Part shown: positions 27 through 16,752 of the stretch, piece by piece | How positions within the stretch are numbered: the first letter of the stretch is position 1 | Layout: the number at the start of each line of letters is the position of its first letter | The notes under the pieces: generated by a model | The model's input: the letters and a program-made list of their open reading frames with translations, nothing else | The model's database searches: none | What the model was told of the DNA's origin: nothing | Made by a program: the position numbers and the translations under genes | From: a virus | Direction: 5' to 3' (one strand) | Virus record (IMG/VR): IMGVR_UViG_3300021255_000047 | Coordinates: 1-33,517 of that record | Length of the DNA: 33,517 bases

Positions 27-2078
27 TGTATAGTTGCCCGTCAGGCCGTTATACGAGTAGTGCGAGCCTCCTCCGCCGCCACCACCATTGCCTCCTGCAC
101 CGCCTCTGTAAAAGTCCGCTTGCACAGGGTCCACGGCGTCCGCTCCGTCGGTCGCGTAGTTCTGCGAGCTGGTGCTTTGTCCCGCGTCCTCCGCGCTGGA
201 TCCGTACGCCGCGCCTCCGCCTCCGCCTCCTGACGCTGTGACGGTGCCGCGTTTTACACCAAGGCCGCCCGCTCCGCCTCTCCATACAGAGTTGTAATCC
301 TCACCCGCGTCGCCCGGGTCTCCCGCTTTGTTCGCGTTGAGTAGGTCGCCGCCTTTTCCGCCGTCTCTGCCCCAGTTTCCGACGTCGCCCTGTTCTCCGT
401 AGATCGCGCCGTCAATCATGTTGACGTATGGGCCTTCGAGAATATTCCCGTCAGCGGTGGTGTAGTCTCCAAATACTGTGTCTCCGCCGATAAGCCCTTC
501 ATTGAACGCTTCACCGTATTCGGCACGCTGTCCGCCTCTTCCTCCAGCGCCTATACTTCCGGGATAACTGGCCTCGAGGCTGTCTATGTCAACGAGGAGG
601 TATCTTCCCGGGCCGCCTCCGTCTCCAGGCTCACCGCCGAGACCTCCAACTCCGCCGTATCCGCGGGAAACGATGTTTTCGCTGTACGGTCGCCCGCTGT
701 GTCCTCTCTCGCCGTCCATGCCGCCGAAGCCGCCCTGCGCTCCGCCAAAAAGAACGGCCAGAGCCCTTTTCCCTCGATGCGCCGCAGGAATTGTGAATAT
801 CCCGTTCGGCGCCGCTGTCAGCAGGAAGTAGTCGCTGAATGTGTTGCCGACATCCGTAGGGAGCCAGTCGTTTATCATCGTCAAATTGCCTCGCCTGAAG
901 CTCGATATCGTCTCATCAACGCCACTTACAAATGCGGAGTGCGCGTCTCCGTATGCGTCATGATAGAAGGCGAAATCGCCCGGATTTTCGTCATTTATTA
1001 CCACATCGACGTTTTGCGTCGTGGTCTGGTAGTAGTTCGCGACCCTGTTCAGGACGCTGGCCGAATTCAGCGAGGAGACCAGCGTGGCCTCTTTGATCGC
1101 CAGATCTTTTCCGCCTGTGTCTCCGGTGTCTTTGATCAGCTCGCGCCTAATGTGAACATACGGCGTGCCGTACAGGACGCCGCTTCCGGTTATGTTCGCC
1201 CAATTTGCGCCGCTGGCGTTTATGGTTATTCCGGATCCGCGGAATGCTGTATATGGCTTGTCAAAAATCACGTCGTGGCCGGAAATGTAAGCGCCGTTCG
1301 TGTTATCGTACACGACCTCCTCCGCGGCGTTCGTGCTCGCGTAGTAGGTGTGTTCTATCAGGCTAATCTTCGAGACCCTGTTTTTTACAACGCGAACGTT
1401 GCGCCCGTCCAGGAAGGTCCGCGCCTCCGGGATCGTCTTTGTCGTCTTGATCTCTGGGTATGCGATGACCATCTCGCCGGCCGTGTTCTCCGTCAGGCAC
1501 GCGCCGACCGCGAAGAGCACCTGCTGGAGGTTATCTCTTGCGGAAGTCCCGCGGTCTCTCGTAGTTGCCGGCAGCCAGCCATATATTCTGTCATCGTAAA
1601 CGTCCGGTGCTATCTGGCAAGGCAGGCCCTGCACTATGTCCAGAATTATGTCTCCTGCAGCGGCTCCGAAGTATACGCCGCCTTTATGCTCCATGTTTAG
1701 CAAAAGGCCGACAGCGGACGTGCCCTCTACCAGCACGACCTCTCTACCTTCGCGCTGAATTGACGTCACGTAAAACTTGGCGCGGAGTGTTCCGTTTTCG
1801 TAAAAATAAAGCGGCTCCGCGTATGGCGTCTGCATGATGTCGCCCTCGTCTATGACGTATTCTTCATCCGCTGACGTGGAGTAAAACTCCATCAGCACGG
1901 TGTATACGTTTTCGAGGCCGAACGCAGACGTGCGGACCCGCATTCTGAAAGAAGAAGCCTCCAAGCTGTCAGAAATTGGAGATACTGCGCTGACTATGTT
2001 CGGGTACGGCGTCAGCCAGATATCTCCGTTATCTGATGCGAAGCTGTGTTCTCCAAAGCGAATTTCAATCTTGCTCAT
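1..2078 (-). CDS. Tail tip / host-recognition type tail protein with glycine-rich C-terminal domain. This is the 5' part; the ORF runs off the left edge and continues at 33491->33446, about 707 aa in total.
   Basis: Manual translation from ATG at 2078 (ATGA overlap with the upstream stop) gives MSKIEIRFGEHSFASDNGDIW... with no stop down to base 1. It is absent from the ORF track because the stop lies across the junction. It follows the tape measure and Dit-like genes. The last ~250 aa are rich in GG/GGxGG and end ...GQGADGFVLVYV. Confidence 0.75.
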   Translation of the reverse strand, partial: MSKIEIRFGEHSFASDNGDIWLTPYPNIVSAVSPISDSLEASSFRMRVRTSAFGLENVYTVLMEFYSTSADEEYVIDEGDIMQTPYAEPLYFYENGTLRAKFYVTSIQREGREVVLVEGTSAVGLLLNMEHKGGVYFGAAAGDIILDIVQGLPCQIAPDVYDDRIYGWLPATTRDRGTSARDNLQQVLFAVGACLTENTAGEMVIAYPEIKTTKTIPEARTFLDGRNVRVVKNRVSKISLIEHTYYASTNAAEEVVYDNTNGAYISGHDVIFDKPYTAFRGSGITINASGANWANITGSGVLYGTPYVHIRRELIKDTGDTGGKDLAIKEATLVSSLNSASVLNRVANYYQTTTQNVDVVINDENPGDFAFYHDAYGDAHSAFVSGVDETISSFRRGNLTMINDWLPTDVGNTFSDYFLLTAAPNGIFTIPAAHRGKRALAVLFGGAQGGFGGMDGERGHSGRPYSENIVSRGYGGVGGLGGEPGDGGGPGRYLLVDIDSLEASYPGSIGAGGRGGQRAEYGEAFNEGLIGGDTVFGDYTTADGNILEGPYVNMIDGAIYGEQGDVGNWGRDGGKGGDLLNANKAGDPGDAGEDYNSVWRGGAGGLGVKRGTVTASGGGGGGAAYGSSAEDAGQSTSSQNYATDGADAVDPVQADFYRGGAGGNGGGGGGGSHYSYNGLTGNYTNPGRGGYG

Positions 2079-2455
2079 TTTTCCGTAAATGTCACCACGA
2101 TGCCCGTCCAATACTCGAGGCCGTTCGCGCCGAGTCCTCTGTACTTCTGCCGCGTGACGTCCCTCTTCGCCGTCATGGTCCGCTGCGTCTTTGTGCGCGG
2201 ATCGTAATATGTCACCTTATGGTAGACGGAGGAATATATGGCGTTCAAAAGGTTGCTTAACTTGGCCGAATCGAGCGGCATGGCCGGAAGCGTCACCTCC
2301 GCCTTGATTGCCAGCTCGTCATCTATGCTCTCGCCATTCAGCGCTCTCCCGCCCTGTCCTCCGTCTATCGAGACGTATCCGACCTGATAGCCGGCATCTG
2401 GGAAGTACGATGTAAAAATATTGTTGTCGATTATAAGCGGCTTTTCTCCTGCCAT
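2075..2455 (-). CDS. Small distal-tail (Dit-like) structural protein
   Basis: 126-aa ORF immediately after the tape measure, with ATGA-type overlaps on both sides. The call rests on position only. Confidence 0.45.
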   Translation of the reverse strand: MAGEKPLIIDNNIFTSYFPDAGYQVGYVSIDGGQGGRALNGESIDDELAIKAEVTLPAMPLDSAKLSNLLNAIYSSVYHKVTYYDPRTKTQRTMTAKRDVTRQKYRGLGANGLEYWTGIVVTFTEK

Positions 2456-4008
2456 CAGTATCCTCCCTGTACGAGCGGCACTCCGACTCTGTTTGCCTCT
2501 TTGGTGTTGTATCTGTACTGATTGCGAGCGACCACAGCGCCGTCGAGCACCGCGGTAAGGTCAATGTTGATTACCTTTGTCTCGCTTTCAACTGGAAGCG
2601 CCATACTCATTGCTCCTGCTCCGGCAACGGTATAGCTCGGAGATCCGTCCGCGCTCCATGCGTTTGCGATCATGCCGCTTACCGTTCCGAGCTCTCTGCG
2701 GAGCTGGCCTTCGCCTTCCTTGATGCCCTTTGTGAAGAGGTCCATCATATCGGGTGCGAAAGTATGAAAGTTCGACAGCGGGCCTTCCTCCGGCTCGGAA
2801 AAGCCGAGGATCCTTTTTACTATCCCGGCCGCGTTCGATACGGTGTCGCGAAGCCTTTCAAACTTGGCTTTCAATCCGTCGATGAAGTTCTGTATGAGAT
2901 CGCTGCCCCAAGTCTTGGCCTTGTCAAGCATCGTTTTTATGCCGTCGCCGACCATCGTCACGATGTCTTTGCCGGCGTCTCGTATACTCGGCCACGCGGC
3001 CATCAGGCCCTTGACTATTGCCTTTATGATTTCCGGAACGGATGCCAAAAGCGTCGGGATATTCGAGAGAAGTCCCGCTATCAGCTGCCCGAGTAGCTTC
3101 GCGCCCATCTCCAGCAGCTTCGGCAAGTTCTGAATGAACGCATCCATCAGCCCGCCAAGGATCGCGACTCCTGTTTCGAGAAACTTCGGCAAATTCTCGT
3201 TCATCGTGCTCAGAACGTTGTCGATGCCCTCGTTTATCAGCGCCACGCCGCTGTCTGAATCGCCGCTGAATATTTTTGTCAAGCCGTCCATGACGGTCGT
3301 TATTCCCGGCATAAAGTCAGATGTCAGTCCGCGCTTCAAGCTTCCGAATGCAGTCTGCAGATCAGAAAGGCTGTCGTTGAACGTGGCCGCCGCCTTCACG
3401 CTTTCGTCGCTCATTACGCCGCCCAGCTCGTGCACGTGCTGCCGGAGCGCTTCTGTATCTTCCGCCGTTGTATTCAGCAGCGGCATAAGCTCCATCGCGC
3501 CCCTGCCCATCAGCTCTGTGGCCAGCCTTGCTCTTTCGCCTTCATCGCCGATACCCTGGAGCCCTGCAATCGTCGCCTCGAACAGTTCTTCTTTGCTCAT
3601 GCTGGCGACCTGTTCCTGACTCAGTCCGAGCTGCTCGAAGGCCGCGCTTCCTTCCGTCGCGAGATTGGAAAGCGTACGCATCGGCCCGGCTAAGGCATCA
3701 GCGGAGCTCCCGTTATACTGAAGGATCGCGTCCCACTCCTGAAAGGCCTGTGCGGATAAACCGAGCTTCTGACTCGCCTTGTCGATGTGGTCTCCGTAGT
3801 CAGACACCTGCTTTGCGCCGTCAAAAAGTCCCTTGGTAAGAGCGACCGTGGCTCCGGTGACCGCTGCTATCGCTGCGCCTCCGACAGCCATCGCGCCCTT
3901 GATCTTGCTCCCGAGCGACGACGCCTTGCTTTCTGCGTCTTTTGTTCCGCTATCAAATCCGGATGAATCAAGAGTTAAACTCGCAACGAGTGAAAAAAGA
4001 TCCATCAT
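2455..4008 (-). CDS. Tail tape measure protein (517 aa)
   Basis: Ala/Gly/Leu-rich helical protein (GGAAIAAVTGATVALTKGLFDGAKQVSDYGDHIDKASQKLGLS...). It follows the G/GT chaperone pair in the canonical order. Confidence 0.85.
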   Translation of the reverse strand: MMDLFSLVASLTLDSSGFDSGTKDAESKASSLGSKIKGAMAVGGAAIAAVTGATVALTKGLFDGAKQVSDYGDHIDKASQKLGLSAQAFQEWDAILQYNGSSADALAGPMRTLSNLATEGSAAFEQLGLSQEQVASMSKEELFEATIAGLQGIGDEGERARLATELMGRGAMELMPLLNTTAEDTEALRQHVHELGGVMSDESVKAAATFNDSLSDLQTAFGSLKRGLTSDFMPGITTVMDGLTKIFSGDSDSGVALINEGIDNVLSTMNENLPKFLETGVAILGGLMDAFIQNLPKLLEMGAKLLGQLIAGLLSNIPTLLASVPEIIKAIVKGLMAAWPSIRDAGKDIVTMVGDGIKTMLDKAKTWGSDLIQNFIDGLKAKFERLRDTVSNAAGIVKRILGFSEPEEGPLSNFHTFAPDMMDLFTKGIKEGEGQLRRELGTVSGMIANAWSADGSPSYTVAGAGAMSMALPVESETKVINIDLTAVLDGAVVARNQYRYNTKEANRVGVPLVQGGY

Positions 4009-4585
4009 TTCTCTCTTTCTGTAAGTCCCGCCCGCGCCCAGATATCCGCGACGATTTCTGCGGACGGTCTGTCGTCCACCTCTTGTTCTTTGTCCGTCTG
4101 GGTGATCTGGTCATACCAGCGCTGCGGAATATACTTTCCCTCGCCCTGCAGCCTCAATGAATCGGTCACATAAACGCGGTATGAAAGCTCCCACAGCGCT
4201 CGCTCTTCTCTCGCGGTCGCGTATCTTACGAAACCTTCGACTCCTCCTGGCCCTCGCCAGTCATTGATGCAGAGCCAGAGGAGCCCTGGGTCTGACCCCG
4301 CAATCCGAAAAGCGCCATAAGCGCCGGGTCGTTCATCATGTCGAGCGTTTCGACCAGCACGCTGGCCGCGTCGCAATGATAATCGGCCGGATCCTTTTCG
4401 TTCAAGATGGCAAACATCGCCATGACGTCCTTCGCGTTGTTCTGGAGCAGCGCGGACGCAAACGCCAGCTTGCCCTCTTCCTTCGCTTTCACGTTCTTTG
4501 CGTTCCCGGCAATATTGCCGATCGGAACGAGCAGTTTTGCTACGATCTCAATCGCTTTTTCGTCTTTGAAGTCAGACAGTCTCAT
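4005..4585 (-). CDS. Tail assembly chaperone, putative -1 frameshift product (gpGT-like)
   Basis: ORF 4005..4376 is in the -1 frame relative to 4226..4585 and overlaps its 3' end. It extends about 72 aa past the G stop and ends with an ATGA-type overlap on the tape measure start. No canonical slippery heptamer was seen. Confidence 0.45.
4226..4585 (-). CDS. Tail assembly chaperone (gpG-like)
   Basis: 119-aa acidic ORF between the major tail protein and the tape measure. Confidence 0.65.
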   Translation of the reverse strand: MRLSDFKDEKAIEIVAKLLVPIGNIAGNAKNVKAKEEGKLAFASALLQNNAKDVMAMFAILNEKDPADYHCDAASVLVETLDMMNDPALMALFGLRGQTQGSSGSASMTGEGQEESKVS

Positions 4586-12396: not shown

Positions 12397-13026
12397 TTAT
12401 CGTTTATATCTTTCACAACAATATATTTTTTCTTTCCATTGTGACACATCACCGCCACGTTCCATGATGATTGACAATATATAATATTCTCGCATATGAA
12501 AGAAATAAGCAAACACATCATCCTCGCTTGTTGTACTATATTTCCTATGTTTCATGGTTACGGCTCTTGTAGCTTCATTGAAAAATTCGGCTGTTTCCTT
12601 GTCTGTTTTGCCCTCTGCTATAATCTCTGGCATACCCATCTTTTCGCCACCATTAAACAAAACAGGACATATGTAATTAGGCTCATAATTCTTTTGGGCA
12701 TAATTGAGCATAGCAAGCGTATAATCATTGAGATAATAAGCAACTATGCAATCACCGCCCGTGGAAGTATTGTAGCCTTGGTCAATCGTTTTTAATTCCG
12801 CAATCAAATATCTTTCAAGCGTTTCTGCCTGCTCTTTCGATATGCCGTCAATGATGATATTATGCGTTACGTTCTCCCATCCATACTTGTTTATGGCTCT
12901 TGCAATTTTAGGCTGAGTTTCGTACCCTTTACCGTTTCTCCATCGTTTTTCAGCATCGCATGAAATACCAATATATTTTTTGCCATTCGGGAAAATATGC
13001 TCATAAACGCAATAGTTTTTATTCAT
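12397..13026 (-). CDS. GIY-YIG family (homing-type) endonuclease
   Basis: Start MNKNYCVYEHIFPNGKKYIGISCDAEKRWRNGKGY (GIY...YIG...R motif spacing as in I-TevI-like enzymes). The ATG at 13026 overlaps the MTase stop by 8 nt. The gene is AT-rich. Confidence 0.7.
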   Translation of the reverse strand: MNKNYCVYEHIFPNGKKYIGISCDAEKRWRNGKGYETQPKIARAINKYGWENVTHNIIIDGISKEQAETLERYLIAELKTIDQGYNTSTGGDCIVAYYLNDYTLAMLNYAQKNYEPNYICPVLFNGGEKMGMPEIIAEGKTDKETAEFFNEATRAVTMKHRKYSTTSEDDVFAYFFHMREYYILSIIMERGGDVSQWKEKIYCCERYKR

Positions 13027-14587
13027 CAAACACCTCGTCATAAGTGAGTTTCTGCCCGTCACGGATGCAGAATATTTCATCTTTTCTGCCTGTAAAATTT
13101 AACCACCTGTTTACGATGACGGAAACGTATCTTTCATCAAGCTCCGCCATATAGCATTTTCTGTTTAACTGTTCACAGGCTATTAGTGTGCTACCACTAC
13201 CGCCAAATACATCAAGGACAATCTCGCCCTCTCTACTACTGCTCTTTATCGCTCTACTGCATAAGGCTATCGGCTTTGGTGTTGCGTGACCGCCTGTGTG
13301 TTCTCTTTCGTCTTTTCCTGCTCTGTCAAAGTGCCACACGTTGTTTTGGTTGTCGTGAGTATTGTCAAAATATGCCCGTGTTTCATACCATTCTTTCTTG
13401 ATTTCGTCATATTCTTTCTTGATTTCGTCATATTCTTTCTTGATTTCGTCATATTCTTTCTTGATTTCGTCATATTCTTTCTTGAATGCGTCATTACCAT
13501 TTCCACGACAGAATTTCTGTATTTTTTGATAATCATCTTTCTGAATTAATCGAGGTTGTTTCTGCGTTCCGTCTCGATTTAATGTCCAATGCTGTGCGAT
13601 GCTTTTGTAACCGCATATTTCATTTAAATCTTTTTCCGTTAATCCGCTTTTTTGTAATTCCTCTGTCATATATTTAAGATATACCCCAAGAGTTTCAGAA
13701 GCGTCTAATATGCCATCTGCACCTTGTACTCCCATCATCACAAACAAGCACTTTTCGTCTGCAATCGGGTACATTCTAAAATCTTCTGACAACTGCCCTT
13801 GTCCGTTCCCTTTGTCCCAAGTGATAAGGTTCCGAAATGTTATCTTGTTCTCTCTCGCCATCGGTTTCAAGATATTGCTGTAAATATCCATCAGCGGTTC
13901 ATCAATCCCCCAACAATACCAAGAGCCATTGTCTTTTAACGCTCCGAATGTCAGCGGAATCCATTGGCGGTTGAAGTCGAGCAAATCATCAAAGTTGAGG
14001 TTGTCATTCAGAACACCCTCGTTCTCTTTCTTCATGCCATAGGGAGGATCCGTGAAAACAAGGTCGGCCTTTACCCCATCCATAAGCCTATCAATGACCT
14101 CCGGATCCGTGCTATCTCCGCAAATCAGCCGGTGCTCTCCAAGCTGCCATATCTCTCCGGCCTTGCAGCGAGTCTCTACTTCCTCCGGGATCTCTACCTC
14201 CTCGACCTCTTTTGGCTCTTCATCTTCCATGTCAAATCCGAAGTCCGACATATCAAATTCGAAGATCTCCGAGATCTCCGCGTCCAAAAGGTCAAAGTCC
14301 CATTCGCTTTCGTTCGTCTTATTATCCGCCAGGCGCAAAGCCTTTATCTGTTCGTCGGTCAGATCGTCTGCTCGAACGACCGGGACGCTGCTCATTCCGA
14401 GCTTCTTCGCTGCCAAAAGTCGCCCGTGTCCTATAACGAGGACGTTGTTCCGGTCTACCACAAGCGGCTGCCTAAAGCCGAATTCTTTTATGCTGTTTGC
14501 TATGTGTTCGACCTGCTCCTCTGGGTGTTTCTTCGCATTCTTGTCGTATGGTACAATCTCCCCTATTGGCATATTTATTATTTCCAA
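13019..14587 (-). CDS. ParB-like nuclease domain fused to an N6-adenine/N4-cytosine DNA methyltransferase (beta class)
   Basis: N-terminal ParB/Srx-like block (IVPYDKNAKKHPEEQVEHIANSIKEFGFRQPLVV...GHGRLLAAKKLG). Motif IV TDPPYG comes before motif I VLDVFGGSGST. Confidence 0.9.
   Translation of the reverse strand: MEIINMPIGEIVPYDKNAKKHPEEQVEHIANSIKEFGFRQPLVVDRNNVLVIGHGRLLAAKKLGMSSVPVVRADDLTDEQIKALRLADNKTNESEWDFDLLDAEISEIFEFDMSDFGFDMEDEEPKEVEEVEIPEEVETRCKAGEIWQLGEHRLICGDSTDPEVIDRLMDGVKADLVFTDPPYGMKKENEGVLNDNLNFDDLLDFNRQWIPLTFGALKDNGSWYCWGIDEPLMDIYSNILKPMARENKITFRNLITWDKGNGQGQLSEDFRMYPIADEKCLFVMMGVQGADGILDASETLGVYLKYMTEELQKSGLTEKDLNEICGYKSIAQHWTLNRDGTQKQPRLIQKDDYQKIQKFCRGNGNDAFKKEYDEIKKEYDEIKKEYDEIKKEYDEIKKEWYETRAYFDNTHDNQNNVWHFDRAGKDEREHTGGHATPKPIALCSRAIKSSSREGEIVLDVFGGSGSTLIACEQLNRKCYMAELDERYVSVIVNRWLNFTGRKDEIFCIRDGQKLTYDEVFDE
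13391..13495. repeat. Tandem 21-bp repeat: 4 perfect copies plus 1 degenerate copy
   Basis: ttctttcttgatttcgtcata x4, in frame, encoding (EYDEIKK)n within the MTase. Confidence 0.95.
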
Positions 14588-15066: not shown

Positions 15067-15339
15067 CTATCCCTCCGGATGTATTGCCGACCATAGCCGG
15101 TTGAGCTTCACGCCTTCCCACTCCGTCACGGCCTCGAAGTTATTGAATATAAACCCGAGCTGTGAAAGCATGATCCGAACGTCCGCCATTTCTTCCGCCA
15201 GATGTTCCTCGTTCCCTTTTCCGCGCAGAATCTTCGTCAGCTCTTTCTGGAGCTCCGACAGCTCCTCGATCGCGACTATTATTTGATGCTCTGTCCCGTA
15301 TGTGTCGATCGCTGCCGTTATTATGTCGTAATTTGTCAT
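15067..15339 (-). CDS. MazG-like nucleotide pyrophosphohydrolase (90 aa)
   Basis: Start MTNYDII at 15339 (ATGA overlap with the MTase stop, AGGAGG upstream). Carries the EExxE...AEEMADV pattern typical of MazG-type all-alpha NTP-PPases. Confidence 0.6.
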   Translation of the reverse strand: MTNYDIITAAIDTYGTEHQIIVAIEELSELQKELTKILRGKGNEEHLAEEMADVRIMLSQLGFIFNNFEAVTEWEGVKLNRLWSAIHPEG

Positions 15340-16574
15340 TCTGAAAACCTCCTCTTTGTGACGGCGATTGGGAATTCTTCGATTTCGGACGCCCACAAAG
15401 CCGAGCCTTTGCCGTTGCACTTCTCCCAGCAAAGAGAGAAACCGCCTATCCCGTCAAACAACGAAGCCATCGTCGCCGGGCGCTCGTACTGTGCCGATAT
15501 ACGGCGGAGCAGCCAAAACCAAAAGGGTAAGGCGATACTATTTCCGAGAGCCTTATAACGCGGGCTGTCCGATGGTTTGTGAAGCTTGCCTTTTGTATCC
15601 GTCCATTCCCCGAGGTCTGTCCAGTTGTCAGGGAAGCCCTGCAGGCGTTCGCATTCAAGTGGCGTCAATCTGCGGACATTGCTATTCATCACGGCGTTTG
15701 GCCCTCTTGATATAAGCGTACTTGATTGATCTTCTGATATGGCGAAGTCGTACAATGCGTTTTTTCCCTGATTGAACGCCGCTCGGTCAATGCCGAATAC
15801 AAGGTCCGTGCCATCCTTATAGTCTCGTGCCTTTATGGCCGAAGTAGAGCCATCCGGGCGGTTGTTGTGATCCCCAGTTATCGTCGGAGCCTGCACGCCG
15901 TCGCCGTTGCCTCTGGCATCATAGACCTGAACGACAGCGTGCCTGTCAGTAACATTCAGCGTGTGCGAAGATCCCTCTCGAACGCCTATTCCGTTCTGCG
16001 AGGTGTTCCTGTCGACCACATGCCCTTCGATGCAAAACACGGACTGGTTATTAAAAGTGGAAAGCGCTCCGGTGTGCTCATTCTGAATCAGTATTCCTTT
16101 GCCCCCCCCCTGGCTTTCCGGCTCTCTCTTGAAATGAGATTGCGCTTCCAGGGCTATCCGTAGCGCCTCGGGCAGCTCTTTCCCTCTCCGCTCCGCTCTC
16201 CTTAAAATCCCCTCGCACGCCTTCGCGCTCAAAGAGTATTTCGGAAGCGGAGAATCCTCCAAAATCTGCGACAAGCGCGATGCGTTTTCTTCGCTGGGGA
16301 ACTCCCCAAAACTGCGCGTCGTGTACTCTCCAGCAGACGGAAAACGGGATCCCGTCGGGGCTATATCCGAATATCCCTCCGGCTTTGTCCCATCTGCCCC
16401 CCCTATCAGGTAAAGGAACGTCGGGCGCTTCGGGGCTTGCGATTTTGACGATTTCCGAGAGAACGGCTTGGAAGTCTTGCCCTTTGTTGCTGGAGAAGGC
16501 TCCGGGGACGTTTTCCCAGACCATGTATCTTGGTCGAATATTGAAAGCTGCCCGGTGATTTGTTCGTCTGTCAT
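15336..16574 (-). CDS. C5 DNA cytosine methyltransferase, part 2: TRD, motifs IX and X, then motifs I-II at the C-terminus
   Basis: RRLTPLECERLQGFPDNW (IX) and RYKALGNSIALPF (X), followed by MASLFDGIGGF...WASEIEEFPIAVTKRRFSE* (I and II). AAGGAG lies 10 nt before the ATG at 16574. Confidence 0.8.
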   Translation of the reverse strand: MTDEQITGQLSIFDQDTWSGKTSPEPSPATKGKTSKPFSRKSSKSQAPKRPTFLYLIGGADGTKPEGYSDIAPTGSRFPSAGEYTTRSFGEFPSEENASRLSQILEDSPLPKYSLSAKACEGILRRAERRGKELPEALRIALEAQSHFKREPESQGGGKGILIQNEHTGALSTFNNQSVFCIEGHVVDRNTSQNGIGVREGSSHTLNVTDRHAVVQVYDARGNGDGVQAPTITGDHNNRPDGSTSAIKARDYKDGTDLVFGIDRAAFNQGKNALYDFAISEDQSSTLISRGPNAVMNSNVRRLTPLECERLQGFPDNWTDLGEWTDTKGKLHKPSDSPRYKALGNSIALPFWFWLLRRISAQYERPATMASLFDGIGGFSLCWEKCNGKGSALWASEIEEFPIAVTKRRFSE

Positions 16575-16752
16575 GCTCTCTCATCTCCTTTACGATCCGT
16601 ATTTGCTCCATGAATAGGCCGGAGCGTTCGCCTTCAAGTCCGGCACGTTTGCCGGCTATTGAAAGGTCTTGGCACGGAGACCCGCCCGTTATGCAATCAA
16701 CGACCGGGACTTCGGCTCCGTTTATTTTAGTTATATCGCCTAAATGCTGCAT
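16078..16752 (-). CDS. C5 DNA cytosine methyltransferase, part 1: motifs IV-VIII with the catalytic Cys
   Basis: MQHLGDITKINGAEVPVVDCITGGSPCQDLS (IV), WENVPGAF (VI), VPQRRKRIALVADF (VIII). GGAGG lies 8 nt before the ATG at 16752. Confidence 0.85.
   Translation of the reverse strand: MQHLGDITKINGAEVPVVDCITGGSPCQDLSIAGKRAGLEGERSGLFMEQIRIVKEMREHDRRTNHRAAFNIRPRYMVWENVPGAFSSNKGQDFQAVLSEIVKIASPEAPDVPLPDRGGRWDKAGGIFGYSPDGIPFSVCWRVHDAQFWGVPQRRKRIALVADFGGFSASEILFEREGVRGDFKESGAERERAARGATDSPGSAISFQERAGKPGGGQRNTDSE
16102..16110. repeat. Homopolymer C9 (G9 on the coding strand)
   Basis: gcccccccccT on the plus strand. It lies 7 sense codons before the ORF1 stop codon, inside both MTase reading frames. 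Confidence 0.95.

Follow-up and report, generated by a model that had tools for sequence, protein, structure and literature searches.

A conserved +1 reading frame nested in orphan phage C5-cytosine methyltransferase genes, a candidate gene for a small beta subunit, and its frameshifted, circularly permuted setting in IMGVR_UViG_3300021255_000047

In the C5-cytosine methyltransferase M.EcoHK31I the whole beta chain is encoded by another reading frame inside the alpha gene, and activity requires both chains (PMC2836561, PMC3404938); the N-terminal ~42 residues of the beta chain are dispensable (PMC2836561). The present report concerns the 33,517-nt stretch of viral DNA deposited as IMG/VR record IMGVR_UViG_3300021255_000047 (positions 1 to 33,517, the whole stretch being referred to as the window), in which the gene of an orphan phage C5-methyltransferase is divided between two open reading frames (ORF1 and ORF2) and contains, in its +1 frame, a further open reading frame that recurs in related phage genes and is called the nested ORF below. 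The likeness to M.EcoHK31I consists in a small polypeptide, encoded inside a methyltransferase gene in another frame, that carries a conserved methyltransferase segment absent from the large chain, and the dispensable N-terminus of the beta chain parallels the poorly conserved N-terminal part of the nested ORF. The beta chain of M.EcoHK31I, however, reportedly holds motif IX, whereas here motif IX lies in the main chain and the nested ORF corresponds to the block that follows motif VIII; unlike the M.EcoHK31I arrangement, the nested ORF also overlaps motifs VI-VIII.

A nested pair of this family is annotated in Streptococcus pneumoniae phage MM1 (GenBank DQ113772.1), where orf13 and orf14 are labelled 'C5 methyltransferase alpha/beta subunit' in the record. 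The +1 frame of orf13 contains orf14, whose 141-aa product belongs to the same family as the nested ORF (QMTLFEE ... CSLSDILEEEVDERYFLSAEMVQRLL; 49.8 bits against the module profile described below), but the MM1 enzyme is an uninterrupted methyltransferase of ordinary motif order and has no G tract. Because of this annotation and of M.EcoHK31I, the idea of a nested beta subunit is not new. In the literature searched, no report was found on the breadth of the family, on evidence for selection or on the identity of the displaced block, and searches for a nested gene in C5-methyltransferases, for clamp-binding partners of methyltransferases and for translation of P1 dmt returned nothing specific. 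That separate halves of such enzymes reassemble is known from M.AquI and from artificially bisected C5-methyltransferases (PMC3404938, PMC5944983); M.AquI differs in having two dedicated ORFs, whereas the split in the window is set by the length of a homopolymer and its second chain opens with nested-ORF sequence. The multispecific methyltransferases of phages SPbeta, phi3T and rho11s share with the window enzyme the superfamily, the orphan phage setting and a block recognised by the nested-ORF profile, but they hold the block in the main chain and their +1 frame is closed (11-15 stops). Second genes in the +1 frame whose products act in one pathway with those of the first are represented by lambda Rz1 inside Rz and by the dcm/vsr overlap in E. 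coli. Rz1 is unrelated to any piece of Rz, whereas the nested product is similar to a segment found in the family of its host enzyme, and the vsr overlap amounts to a few codons, whereas here a whole putative gene of ~150 codons is involved.

ORF1 (16078..16752, 224 aa) and ORF2 (15336..16574, 412 aa) lie on the minus strand, as do all features of the locus given below, and overlap by 497 nt (16078-16574) in which both frames are open, ORF2 being in the +1 frame relative to ORF1. ORF1 is the 5' part of a circularly permuted orphan C5-cytosine methyltransferase, with matches to Pfam PF00145 (1.6e-25), phrog_116 (7e-43) and the PADLOC orphan methyltransferase PDLC03715 (5e-62). It contains motifs III (GDI), IV (GGSPCQ, 16660-16686), VI (WENVPG, 16501-16518) and VIII (QRRKR, 16282-16296), followed by a poorly conserved linker, and is cut short by a frameshift at a G9 tract (16102-16110, C9 on the plus strand) 22 nt before the ORF1 stop. 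ORF2 (PF00145, 1.5e-12) is composed of the nested +1 ORF, which makes up its first ~155 codons, and of the methyltransferase 3' part (15336..16101) with the target-recognition domain (TRD) and motifs IX (15627-15674), X (15531-15545), I (15441-15458) and II (15369-15392); its recognisable elements are QLSIF, FGEFP, LSQILE and KYSLSAKACEGILRRAERRGKELPEALRIALEAQ, and then motifs IX, X, I and II. Of the sequence features of PF00145, the catalytic motifs IV (PCQ), VI (ENV) and VIII (QxRxR) are present in ORF1 and motifs I (FxGxGG), IX (RxLTxxExxRLQGFP) and X (GNS/A) all in ORF2; the canonical I-to-X order in a single chain is not found, the order being permuted and spread over two frames that are split by the G9 tract.

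The nested ORF begins at an ATG (16572-16574) that is preceded, at a distance of 10 nt, by a Shine-Dalgarno sequence AAGGAG (16585-16590) located within the K-E-M codons of the main frame. Its residues 9-13 are QLSIF (16536..16550), which resembles the beta-clamp-binding pentapeptide QL[SD]LF, and residues 88-148 form a conserved C-terminal module (16131..16313; FGEFP...LSQILE...KYSLSAKACEGILRRAERRGKELPEALRIALE) that shares its DNA with motif VIII and the variable linker in the main frame. A further homopolymer, G7 (16397..16403), lies within the overlap. When one G is removed from the G9 tract, giving G8, the locus encodes a 471-aa methyltransferase and a 161-aa nested ORF; only because the tract is G9 and not G8 does the nested ORF read through into the methyltransferase 3' part. 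The 412-aa unit of ORF2 is not the ancestral gene. A first-pass annotation, made from the letters of the window, had described the overlap, its frame relation and the AAGGAG at its distance from the ATG, and had placed motifs VI and VIII in ORF1; the coordinates were borne out, the Shine-Dalgarno sequence was located where described and all peptides quoted are present. Its statement that such an open stretch is unlikely by chance also held, as follows.

The chance expectation was obtained by keeping the ORF1 protein fixed and resampling synonymous codons with the gene's own codon usage. In the window, 3.0 stops on average are expected in the +1 frame and the frame is open in 2% of the resampling trials; it was observed to be open, and the +2 frame had 7 stops against 8.6 expected. 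Loci for comparison were collected with main-frame queries only, to avoid selecting on the second frame: 80 IMG/VR loci were obtained with the ORF1 protein (Firmicutes-type set) and 80 loci with a main-frame alignment led by P1 Dmt (P1-type set; 50-99% identity, GC content 0.39-0.68). In either set nearly all loci have a +1 frame that is open for ~132-250 codons across motifs VI-VIII, against only 19-100 codons in most loci for the +2 frame. The open +1 stretch has at least 135 codons, from the same position onwards, in almost all loci of the Firmicutes-type set and 132-244 codons in the P1-type set. Codon resampling per locus gave 2.8 expected stops and a mean probability of an open frame of ~0.08, while over a fixed test window 60 of 76 loci were fully open and the remaining loci had stops at its edges only; the +2 frame had 5.5 stops against 6.4 expected. 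The openness of the +1 frame, which is unusual in the window sequence alone, is far beyond chance across its relatives.

A tblastn search of phage genomes with the ORF2 N-terminus gave 136 records, among them phages of Vibrio, Mycobacterium, Escherichia, Streptococcus and Ruminococcus. In Javan105, NatCom_9287, P1 (dmt), CP-T1 and mycobacteriophage Dallas the annotation shows an ordinary C5-methyltransferase and the match falls in its +1 frame, with a nested ORF of 135-163 codons, and uninterrupted methyltransferase genes of relatives hold nested ORFs of 135-196 codons wholly within them in a different frame. Five distant methyltransferases, low-ranked main-frame matches intended as negative controls, all carry the nested ORF as well (Clostridioides difficile phage CDKM9, GC content 0.31; Javan95; Lactobacillus phage SAC12B; Caulobacter phage CcrSC; Akkermansia phage Chantilly), with 149-194 open codons; their +1 frame has 0-1 stops, compared with 3-25 for the +2 frame. 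Three of the five show the nested-ORF ending S.LSDILE.EV.EKY[FY]LS, and CcrSC and Chantilly have more divergent versions of the block. A query of the SAC12B type added 75 phage records. Main-frame searching gave 829 phage records, and nested-ORF carriers number at least 136 + 75 among them; the frame is open in nearly all relatives selected on main-frame similarity alone, such as P1 dmt and genes from phages of Vibrio, Mycobacterium, Streptococcus, C. difficile and Lactobacillus. Relatives of the methyltransferase 5' part are encoded in at least 437 IMG/VR stretches, of which those inspected are mostly of the permuted type.

Conservation separates the two frames. Among 25 non-redundant full-length genes, the identity of synonymous codons in pairs with the same amino acid is 0.79-0.95 within the overlap against 0.52-0.73 outside it, and its peak coincides with the lowest amino-acid identity of the main frame. 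In the stretch that begins at main-frame EILFE (24 sequences with less than 60% mutual main-frame identity) the amino-acid identity is 0.287 in the main frame, 0.566 in the +1 frame and 0.28 in the +2 frame, the +1 value being compared with a resampling null of 0.18 (z = 60), and over the last ~50 nested codons conservation in the +1 frame is double that in the main frame. Outside the overlap, nucleotide variability peaks at position 3 of the main-frame codons (0.31-0.38; 0.06-0.10 at positions 1 and 2), whereas over the end of the nested ORF the highest variability falls on main-frame position 1, the third codon position of the +1 frame (close set 0.25, deep set 0.56). The second frame is, with a high degree of confidence, under selection at the level of protein. 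The claim of the first-pass annotation that the region codes in two frames is thereby supported. The check it had proposed shows suppressed synonymous variation within the overlap, and two findings that it had said would refute the claim did not occur: upstream of the G tract the homologues keep the ORF2 frame free of stops, and homologues of the ORF2 N-terminus number in the thousands (see below).

It is hardly credible in the light of these data that no second protein is made and that the openness and conservation of the +1 frame are by-products of amino-acid constraint and codon bias in the methyltransferase frame. Such an explanation suits the N-terminal two thirds of the nested ORF, over motifs VI-VIII, which are conserved no more than the +2 control (~100 codons; identity 0.32 in the +1 frame and 0.31 in the +2 frame), and it suits GKTSPE and FGEFP, which are largely dictated by WENVPG and FWGVPQ of the main frame. 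With the amino acids fixed, however, resampling predicts ~2.8 stops and an identity of 0.18 where 0 stops and 0.57 are observed; conservation in the +1 frame is strongest where that of the main frame is weakest (0.287) and where the periodicity flips to the +1 frame; and SPbeta-type enzymes, which have the same catalytic motifs, contain 4-15 stops in their +1 frame. De novo birth of a gene by overprinting has two marks, of which purifying selection on both frames is present; the other, a new frame without relatives outside the overlap, is not, as the SPbeta-type enzymes have a main-frame block that the conserved nested-ORF end matches.

In the methyltransferases of SPbeta, phi3T and rho11s (99% identity, phage collection) this block, LREILEDFVDEKYYLNEEK, stands in the main chain ~55 residues past motif VIII and before the TRD. 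A profile of the module, made from the ends of 127 nested ORFs, has main-frame matches in seven SPbeta-type methyltransferases, including SPbeta MtbP and that of rho11s, with per-sequence E-values of 1.6e-8 to 4e-3, the match being short (~30 residues, 7-20 bits) and the targets having been chosen with this motif in mind. The +1 frames of these seven have 4-15 stops and no nested ORF, true negatives for the nested ORF having turned up only among enzymes of this type, and the main frames of 10 nested-ORF methyltransferases gave no match to the profile; in 17 of 17 cases the block thus has one place, the main chain or the nested ORF. A segment conserved in methyltransferases but missing from the large chain, as a small chain would be expected to carry, is accordingly found when the 10 nested-ORF enzymes are set against the seven without a nested ORF. 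Of the likeness to an FxFP...LxxILE...KYxLS block that had been noted in the first-pass annotation, the LxxILE...KYxLS part stands, through the main-frame profile match in SPbeta MtbP, rho11s and five other phage methyltransferases. Judged from the sequences compared, what the nested ORF carries at its end is a displaced segment of the enzyme and not a de novo protein.

The nested ORF has ~145-165 codons, starts just upstream of motif VI and ends ~55 codons past motif VIII. The start codon is ATG in 117 of 133 non-redundant nested ORFs (two main-frame-selected sets and phage records), and in the Firmicutes-type set the start has a constant position relative to the main frame, with AAGGAG 10 nt before the ATG in most loci. 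In an AlphaFold model (94 homologues) residues 1-99 are predicted to be disordered, with a predicted local distance difference test (pLDDT) value of ~50, and residues 100-148 to form a small helical unit with helices at 117-130 and 136-148 (pLDDT 83-93 for residues 110-148). The consensus of this end, S.LSQ.L......KY.LSaKAC.GILRRAE.RGK.LP..L..aL, describes a basic helical module. In the model of the whole ORF2 (37 sequences) the mean pLDDT is 53 and the nested helical module alone is confident. Scans of the nested-ORF protein against Pfam, PHROGs, NCBIfam and PADLOC assigned no family, and the first 165 residues of ORF2 had no match in Pfam. The Foldseek matches in BFVD were a fused version annotated as cytosine methyltransferase and gp104 of mycobacteriophage Thibault, both members of the same nested-ORF family. 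Two candidate identities were dropped: a Vsr-like repair endonuclease, considered by analogy with dcm/vsr, had no Pfam match, and a controller or helix-turn-helix protein found no family or fold match.

The N-terminal part of the nested protein contains a motif Qxx[LIM]F in 42 of 75 and 15 of 62 non-redundant nested ORFs, where shuffling leads one to expect 1.3 and 0.5. The Q directly follows the initiator Met in 36 cases (e.g., MQLTMF, MQLTLF, QLDLF), and the corresponding peptide of the window is GQLSIF. The bacterial beta-clamp-binding consensus is QL[SD]LF. The motif of this type is ~30-fold enriched and present in 24-56% of the members, and QLSIF of the window sits in the region of pLDDT ~50; clamp binding by this N-terminal peptide is suggested by its sequence, with low confidence. 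The same evidence bears on an explanation that we consider unlikely, namely that the nested protein is real but is an accessory protein and not an enzyme subunit, for instance a regulator or an adaptor to the beta sliding clamp which would tether methylation to replication or interfere with the clamp. The enrichment of a clamp-binding-like pentapeptide at the extreme N-terminus in several phyla speaks in its favour, as does the succession of a long disordered linker and a small basic helical domain, which is a typical adaptor layout. Many members, however, lack the motif or have a degenerate form of it, among them P1 (MQLTTNG) and a large Firmicutes sub-clade (GQVTWSD); what is conserved throughout is the C-terminal module with its relationship to an intrinsic methyltransferase segment; and an accessory role is compatible with a subunit role and does not exclude it.

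Homologues of the nested sequence (N-terminal 154 aa of ORF2) comprise 2299 database proteins and 4548 cluster representatives, in which the sequence stands nearly always at the N-terminus. Gene callers choose the nested ORF where the methyltransferase is interrupted. In 70 bacterial-genome loci collected with the nested sequence, mostly from Oscillospiraceae, Ruminococcaceae and other Clostridia, an overlapping methyltransferase frame was present in all, and no free-standing copy of the nested ORF was seen among these 70. In four metagenome contigs (L004-L007) the automatic gene calls are the nested +1 ORF (160-265 aa) and not the longer methyltransferase 5' ORF; in L004 further downstream frame changes are needed for read-through of the methyltransferase, and this copy may be decaying. 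In phage P1 (locus L088) a nested +1 ORF of 162 codons, ending in LLSQVLEQTSIPQRYFLSSKACAGILRRGEKRRKSLPPLLQMAL, occupies 2225-2713 inside dmt (1927-4191); it is unannotated in NC_005856.1, a record that gives the C5 activity of Dmt as 'perhaps'. In the cluster J mycobacteriophages Thibault (L251, 323-2453) and Dallas (L090, 1727-3175) the C5-methylase gene is in pieces, with HNH endonuclease genes between them or right after them, and Thibault gp104 (81 aa, 'hypothetical protein') is the conserved nested-ORF end, annotated in preference to the enzyme frame.

We regard it as probable that the locus is an orphan phage C5-methyltransferase gene with a second gene nested in its +1 frame, the product of which is most likely a small 'beta' subunit, and that in the window the permuted enzyme is split by the G9 tract. 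The nested gene, with its own ATG and Shine-Dalgarno sequence, would give rise to a small 'beta' polypeptide, and this polypeptide would supply the LxxILE...KYYL block to the enzyme in trans, a supply that is proposed because the SPbeta, phi3T and rho11s enzymes have the block placed after motif VIII and ahead of the TRD in the main chain. In the window, where the 3' half of the enzyme is in the nested frame, the nested ORF runs on into TRD-IX-X-I-II to give the 412-aa ORF2, and the +1 state puts the displaced block back in front of the TRD. The two-subunit enzyme suggested in the first-pass annotation had motifs IV-VIII on one chain and the TRD with motifs IX, X, I and II on the other; the suggestion stands in a different form, with most relatives having a full-length methyltransferase and a small nested, putative subunit. 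For the subunit role itself, which is argued from analogy, confidence is moderate.

Several points weigh against a nested beta subunit, to which the shortness and the choice of the SPbeta-type profile matches have to be added. Translation of the nested ORF is deduced from reading frames in every member of the family. Its N-terminal part is, as far as the alignments tell, merely kept open, and openness is its sole unusual trait. Since the beta chain holds motif IX in M.EcoHK31I and motif IX is in the main frame here, M.EcoHK31I serves as an analogy and is not a demonstrated homologue. The ORF2 model, in which the nested module alone is confident, provides no information on docking. A sequence profile search of the PDB with the nested ORF gave no hit at E<=10, and a Foldseek search of the PDB gave none below E=2.5 and no fold match.

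The length of the G tract tracks the reading frame in relatives. In the sub-clade of the window, 7 listed loci (5 contigs after removal of near-identical copies) have G7 (-1), 3 have G9 (+1) and a single one has the in-frame G8. Of the 32 loci in a second sub-clade, the tract is G7 or G6 and in frame in 26, G8 (+1) in 5 and G6 (-1) in 1. Each of these six out-of-frame loci is nearest to a different in-frame relative, from which it is a single G and 0-1 substitutions apart: L039 and L033 differ over 959 nt by 0 mismatches and 1 gap, and L064 and L041 over 1676 nt by 1 mismatch and 1 gap. A homopolymer of at least 7 that sets the frame, and recurrent length polymorphism among otherwise identical sequences, which characterise phase-variable genes, are thus both observed, and the pattern of tract lengths fits what the sequence of a slippage-prone tract would produce; deliberate phase variation at the tract is proposed with low confidence. 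The poly-G tracts of phasevarions in Campylobacter, Helicobacter and Neisseria are similar in that a G7-G9 run of variable length in a coding region sets the frame. The difference is that the present enzyme is a phage orphan of Clostridia and that one of its out-of-frame states is a fusion with the nested ORF and not a simple truncation.

The G9 of the window could also be an assembly error, which would count against a genuine split, and it is a tenable though less likely alternative that a homopolymer was miscounted (G9 for G8) and that the true state is the 471-aa methyltransferase with the 161-aa nested ORF. A single-base change restores the frame, and some relatives differ by tract length alone, a pattern that errors would give as well. 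Against a miscount stands the distribution just given, in which the window sub-clade has 7 G7 loci (5 contigs) and 3 with G9 but only 1 in-frame G8, and in which 6 of 32 loci in the second sub-clade are out of frame, each with a different nearest in-frame relative; so high an out-of-frame frequency is unexpected of random error and typical of slippage-prone tracts. G9 may accordingly be a real off or alternative state. A miscount would in any case touch the split alone and not the dual coding.

Were the G9 state real, it could be that the frameshifted locus encodes a working two-chain enzyme, chain A with motifs III-VIII and chain B with the nested module, TRD, IX, X, I and II, the module being in its canonical place. 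To this possibility we give about the same limited credence as to a miscount. The same +1 layout is found in at least 8 independent relatives, and many database proteins of 300-620 aa begin with nested-ORF sequence, but most relatives are single-chain enzymes, and in the window sub-clade the -1 state (G7), which yields no fusion, is about as frequent as the +1 state.

Programmed frameshifting had been raised in the first-pass annotation and was not sustained as a general mechanism, most of the wider family being without a homopolymer. An origin of the nested product by frameshifting or slippage from the methyltransferase frame, with the G tracts as shift sites and a truncated enzyme (to motif VI or VIII) joined to the conserved +1 end, is very unlikely. 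It would account for the two G tracts inside the overlap of the window and for Faecalibacterium phage FP_Toutatis, in which a G9 joins the N-terminal part of the methyltransferase to the nested-ORF end in one annotated coding sequence. Homopolymers of at least 7 in the nested-ORF span occur, however, in only 4 of 76 P1-type and 18 of 65 bacterial-genome loci, the other 72 and 47 having kept the nested ORF; by these counts no shift site is conserved across the family that keeps the nested frame. Frameshifting would likewise not explain why ~100 codons are kept open upstream of the conserved end, nor the conserved ATG and Shine-Dalgarno sequence and the N-terminal motif that comes straight after the Met. 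Only the clade of the window has the G tracts, which are therefore not a general means of expressing the nested ORF. In FP_Toutatis the G9 (L003, 2421-2429) lies at the site of the G7 of the window, the annotated 'DNA-cytosine methyltransferase' runs from motifs IV-VI straight into the nested-ORF end, and the remaining enzyme is in another frame.

The motif order of the window enzyme is III-IV-VI-VIII-TRD-IX-X-I-II, with the N-terminus between motifs II and III. ORF1 aligns with residues 48-246 of the ordinary-order methyltransferase of NatCom_9287 (E=2e-61), its MQHLGDI falling at residue 48 of that enzyme; the residues of ORF2 that follow the tract align with residues 358-379 and 465-665 of the same protein, and the last 48 aa of ORF2 with its N-terminus, residues 5-45 (motifs I-II). 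The old initiator Met is still visible at the junction of motifs X and I (...ERPATMASLFDGIGG), and the permuted layout is, from these alignments, consistent with a duplication followed by truncation. In most relatives of the window enzyme a single chain of 500-780 aa is encoded, and the nested ORF lies inside the gene. The type H enzymes M.BssHII, M.Alw26I and M.Esp3I resemble it in that motif X precedes motif I; they differ in that the new N-terminus here lies between motifs II and III and not in the interval from motif VIII to the TRD. Natural permuted C5-methyltransferases in REBASE are all of type H (VIII|TRD), and engineered II|III permutants were the most active (PMC5944983). The topology of M.BssHII is not that of the window enzyme, whose N-terminus is II|III.

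The neighbourhood of the locus is a phage replication and modification module with genes for a ParB_N + N6/N4 methylase, a DUF551 protein and a DUF927 helicase. In the adjoining ORF for the ParB_N + N6_N4 DNA methylase (13019-14587, minus strand), a 21-nt unit is repeated 5 times with 97% identity at 13390-13494 and encodes KKEYDEI x5. The ORF directly downstream of the methyltransferase (15067-15432, minus strand) overlaps the stop region of the latter; by eye it is like a MazG-type pyrophosphohydrolase, and it had no Pfam or PADLOC match at the thresholds used. An Rfam scan of the whole window gave no match, and an RNA element is therefore without support.

Should the nested ORF prove to be translated, the cytosine methyltransferases of phages and prophages would include a large class of two-protein enzymes, the second protein of which is missing from Pfam, PHROGs and NCBIfam and is annotated as a separate gene in a few records such as that of MM1. 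Cloning and expression of these anti-restriction enzymes, and the interpretation of the results, would be affected, and a codon-optimised or recoded gene would destroy the second protein; the nested ORF is also a candidate explanation for the C5 activity of P1 Dmt, annotated merely as 'perhaps'. More speculatively, and in our view improbably, the nested protein might be a universal second subunit throughout a large class of C5-methyltransferases from phages and mobile elements, among them P1 Dmt and the methylases of C. difficile, Lactobacillus and Streptococcus phages, with QLxLF as a clamp tether that would direct methylation of new phage DNA to the replication fork, a bacterial-virus counterpart of DNMT1-PCNA, and, in the clade of the window, with poly-G slippage toggling between a free and a TRD-fused subunit. 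The loci compared here provide a deep, well-sampled case of long same-strand dual coding in DNA phages. The window locus is a natural circular permutant of the II|III topology, which had so far been reported only from engineering, and the homopolymer at this locus rewires which chain carries the nested module.

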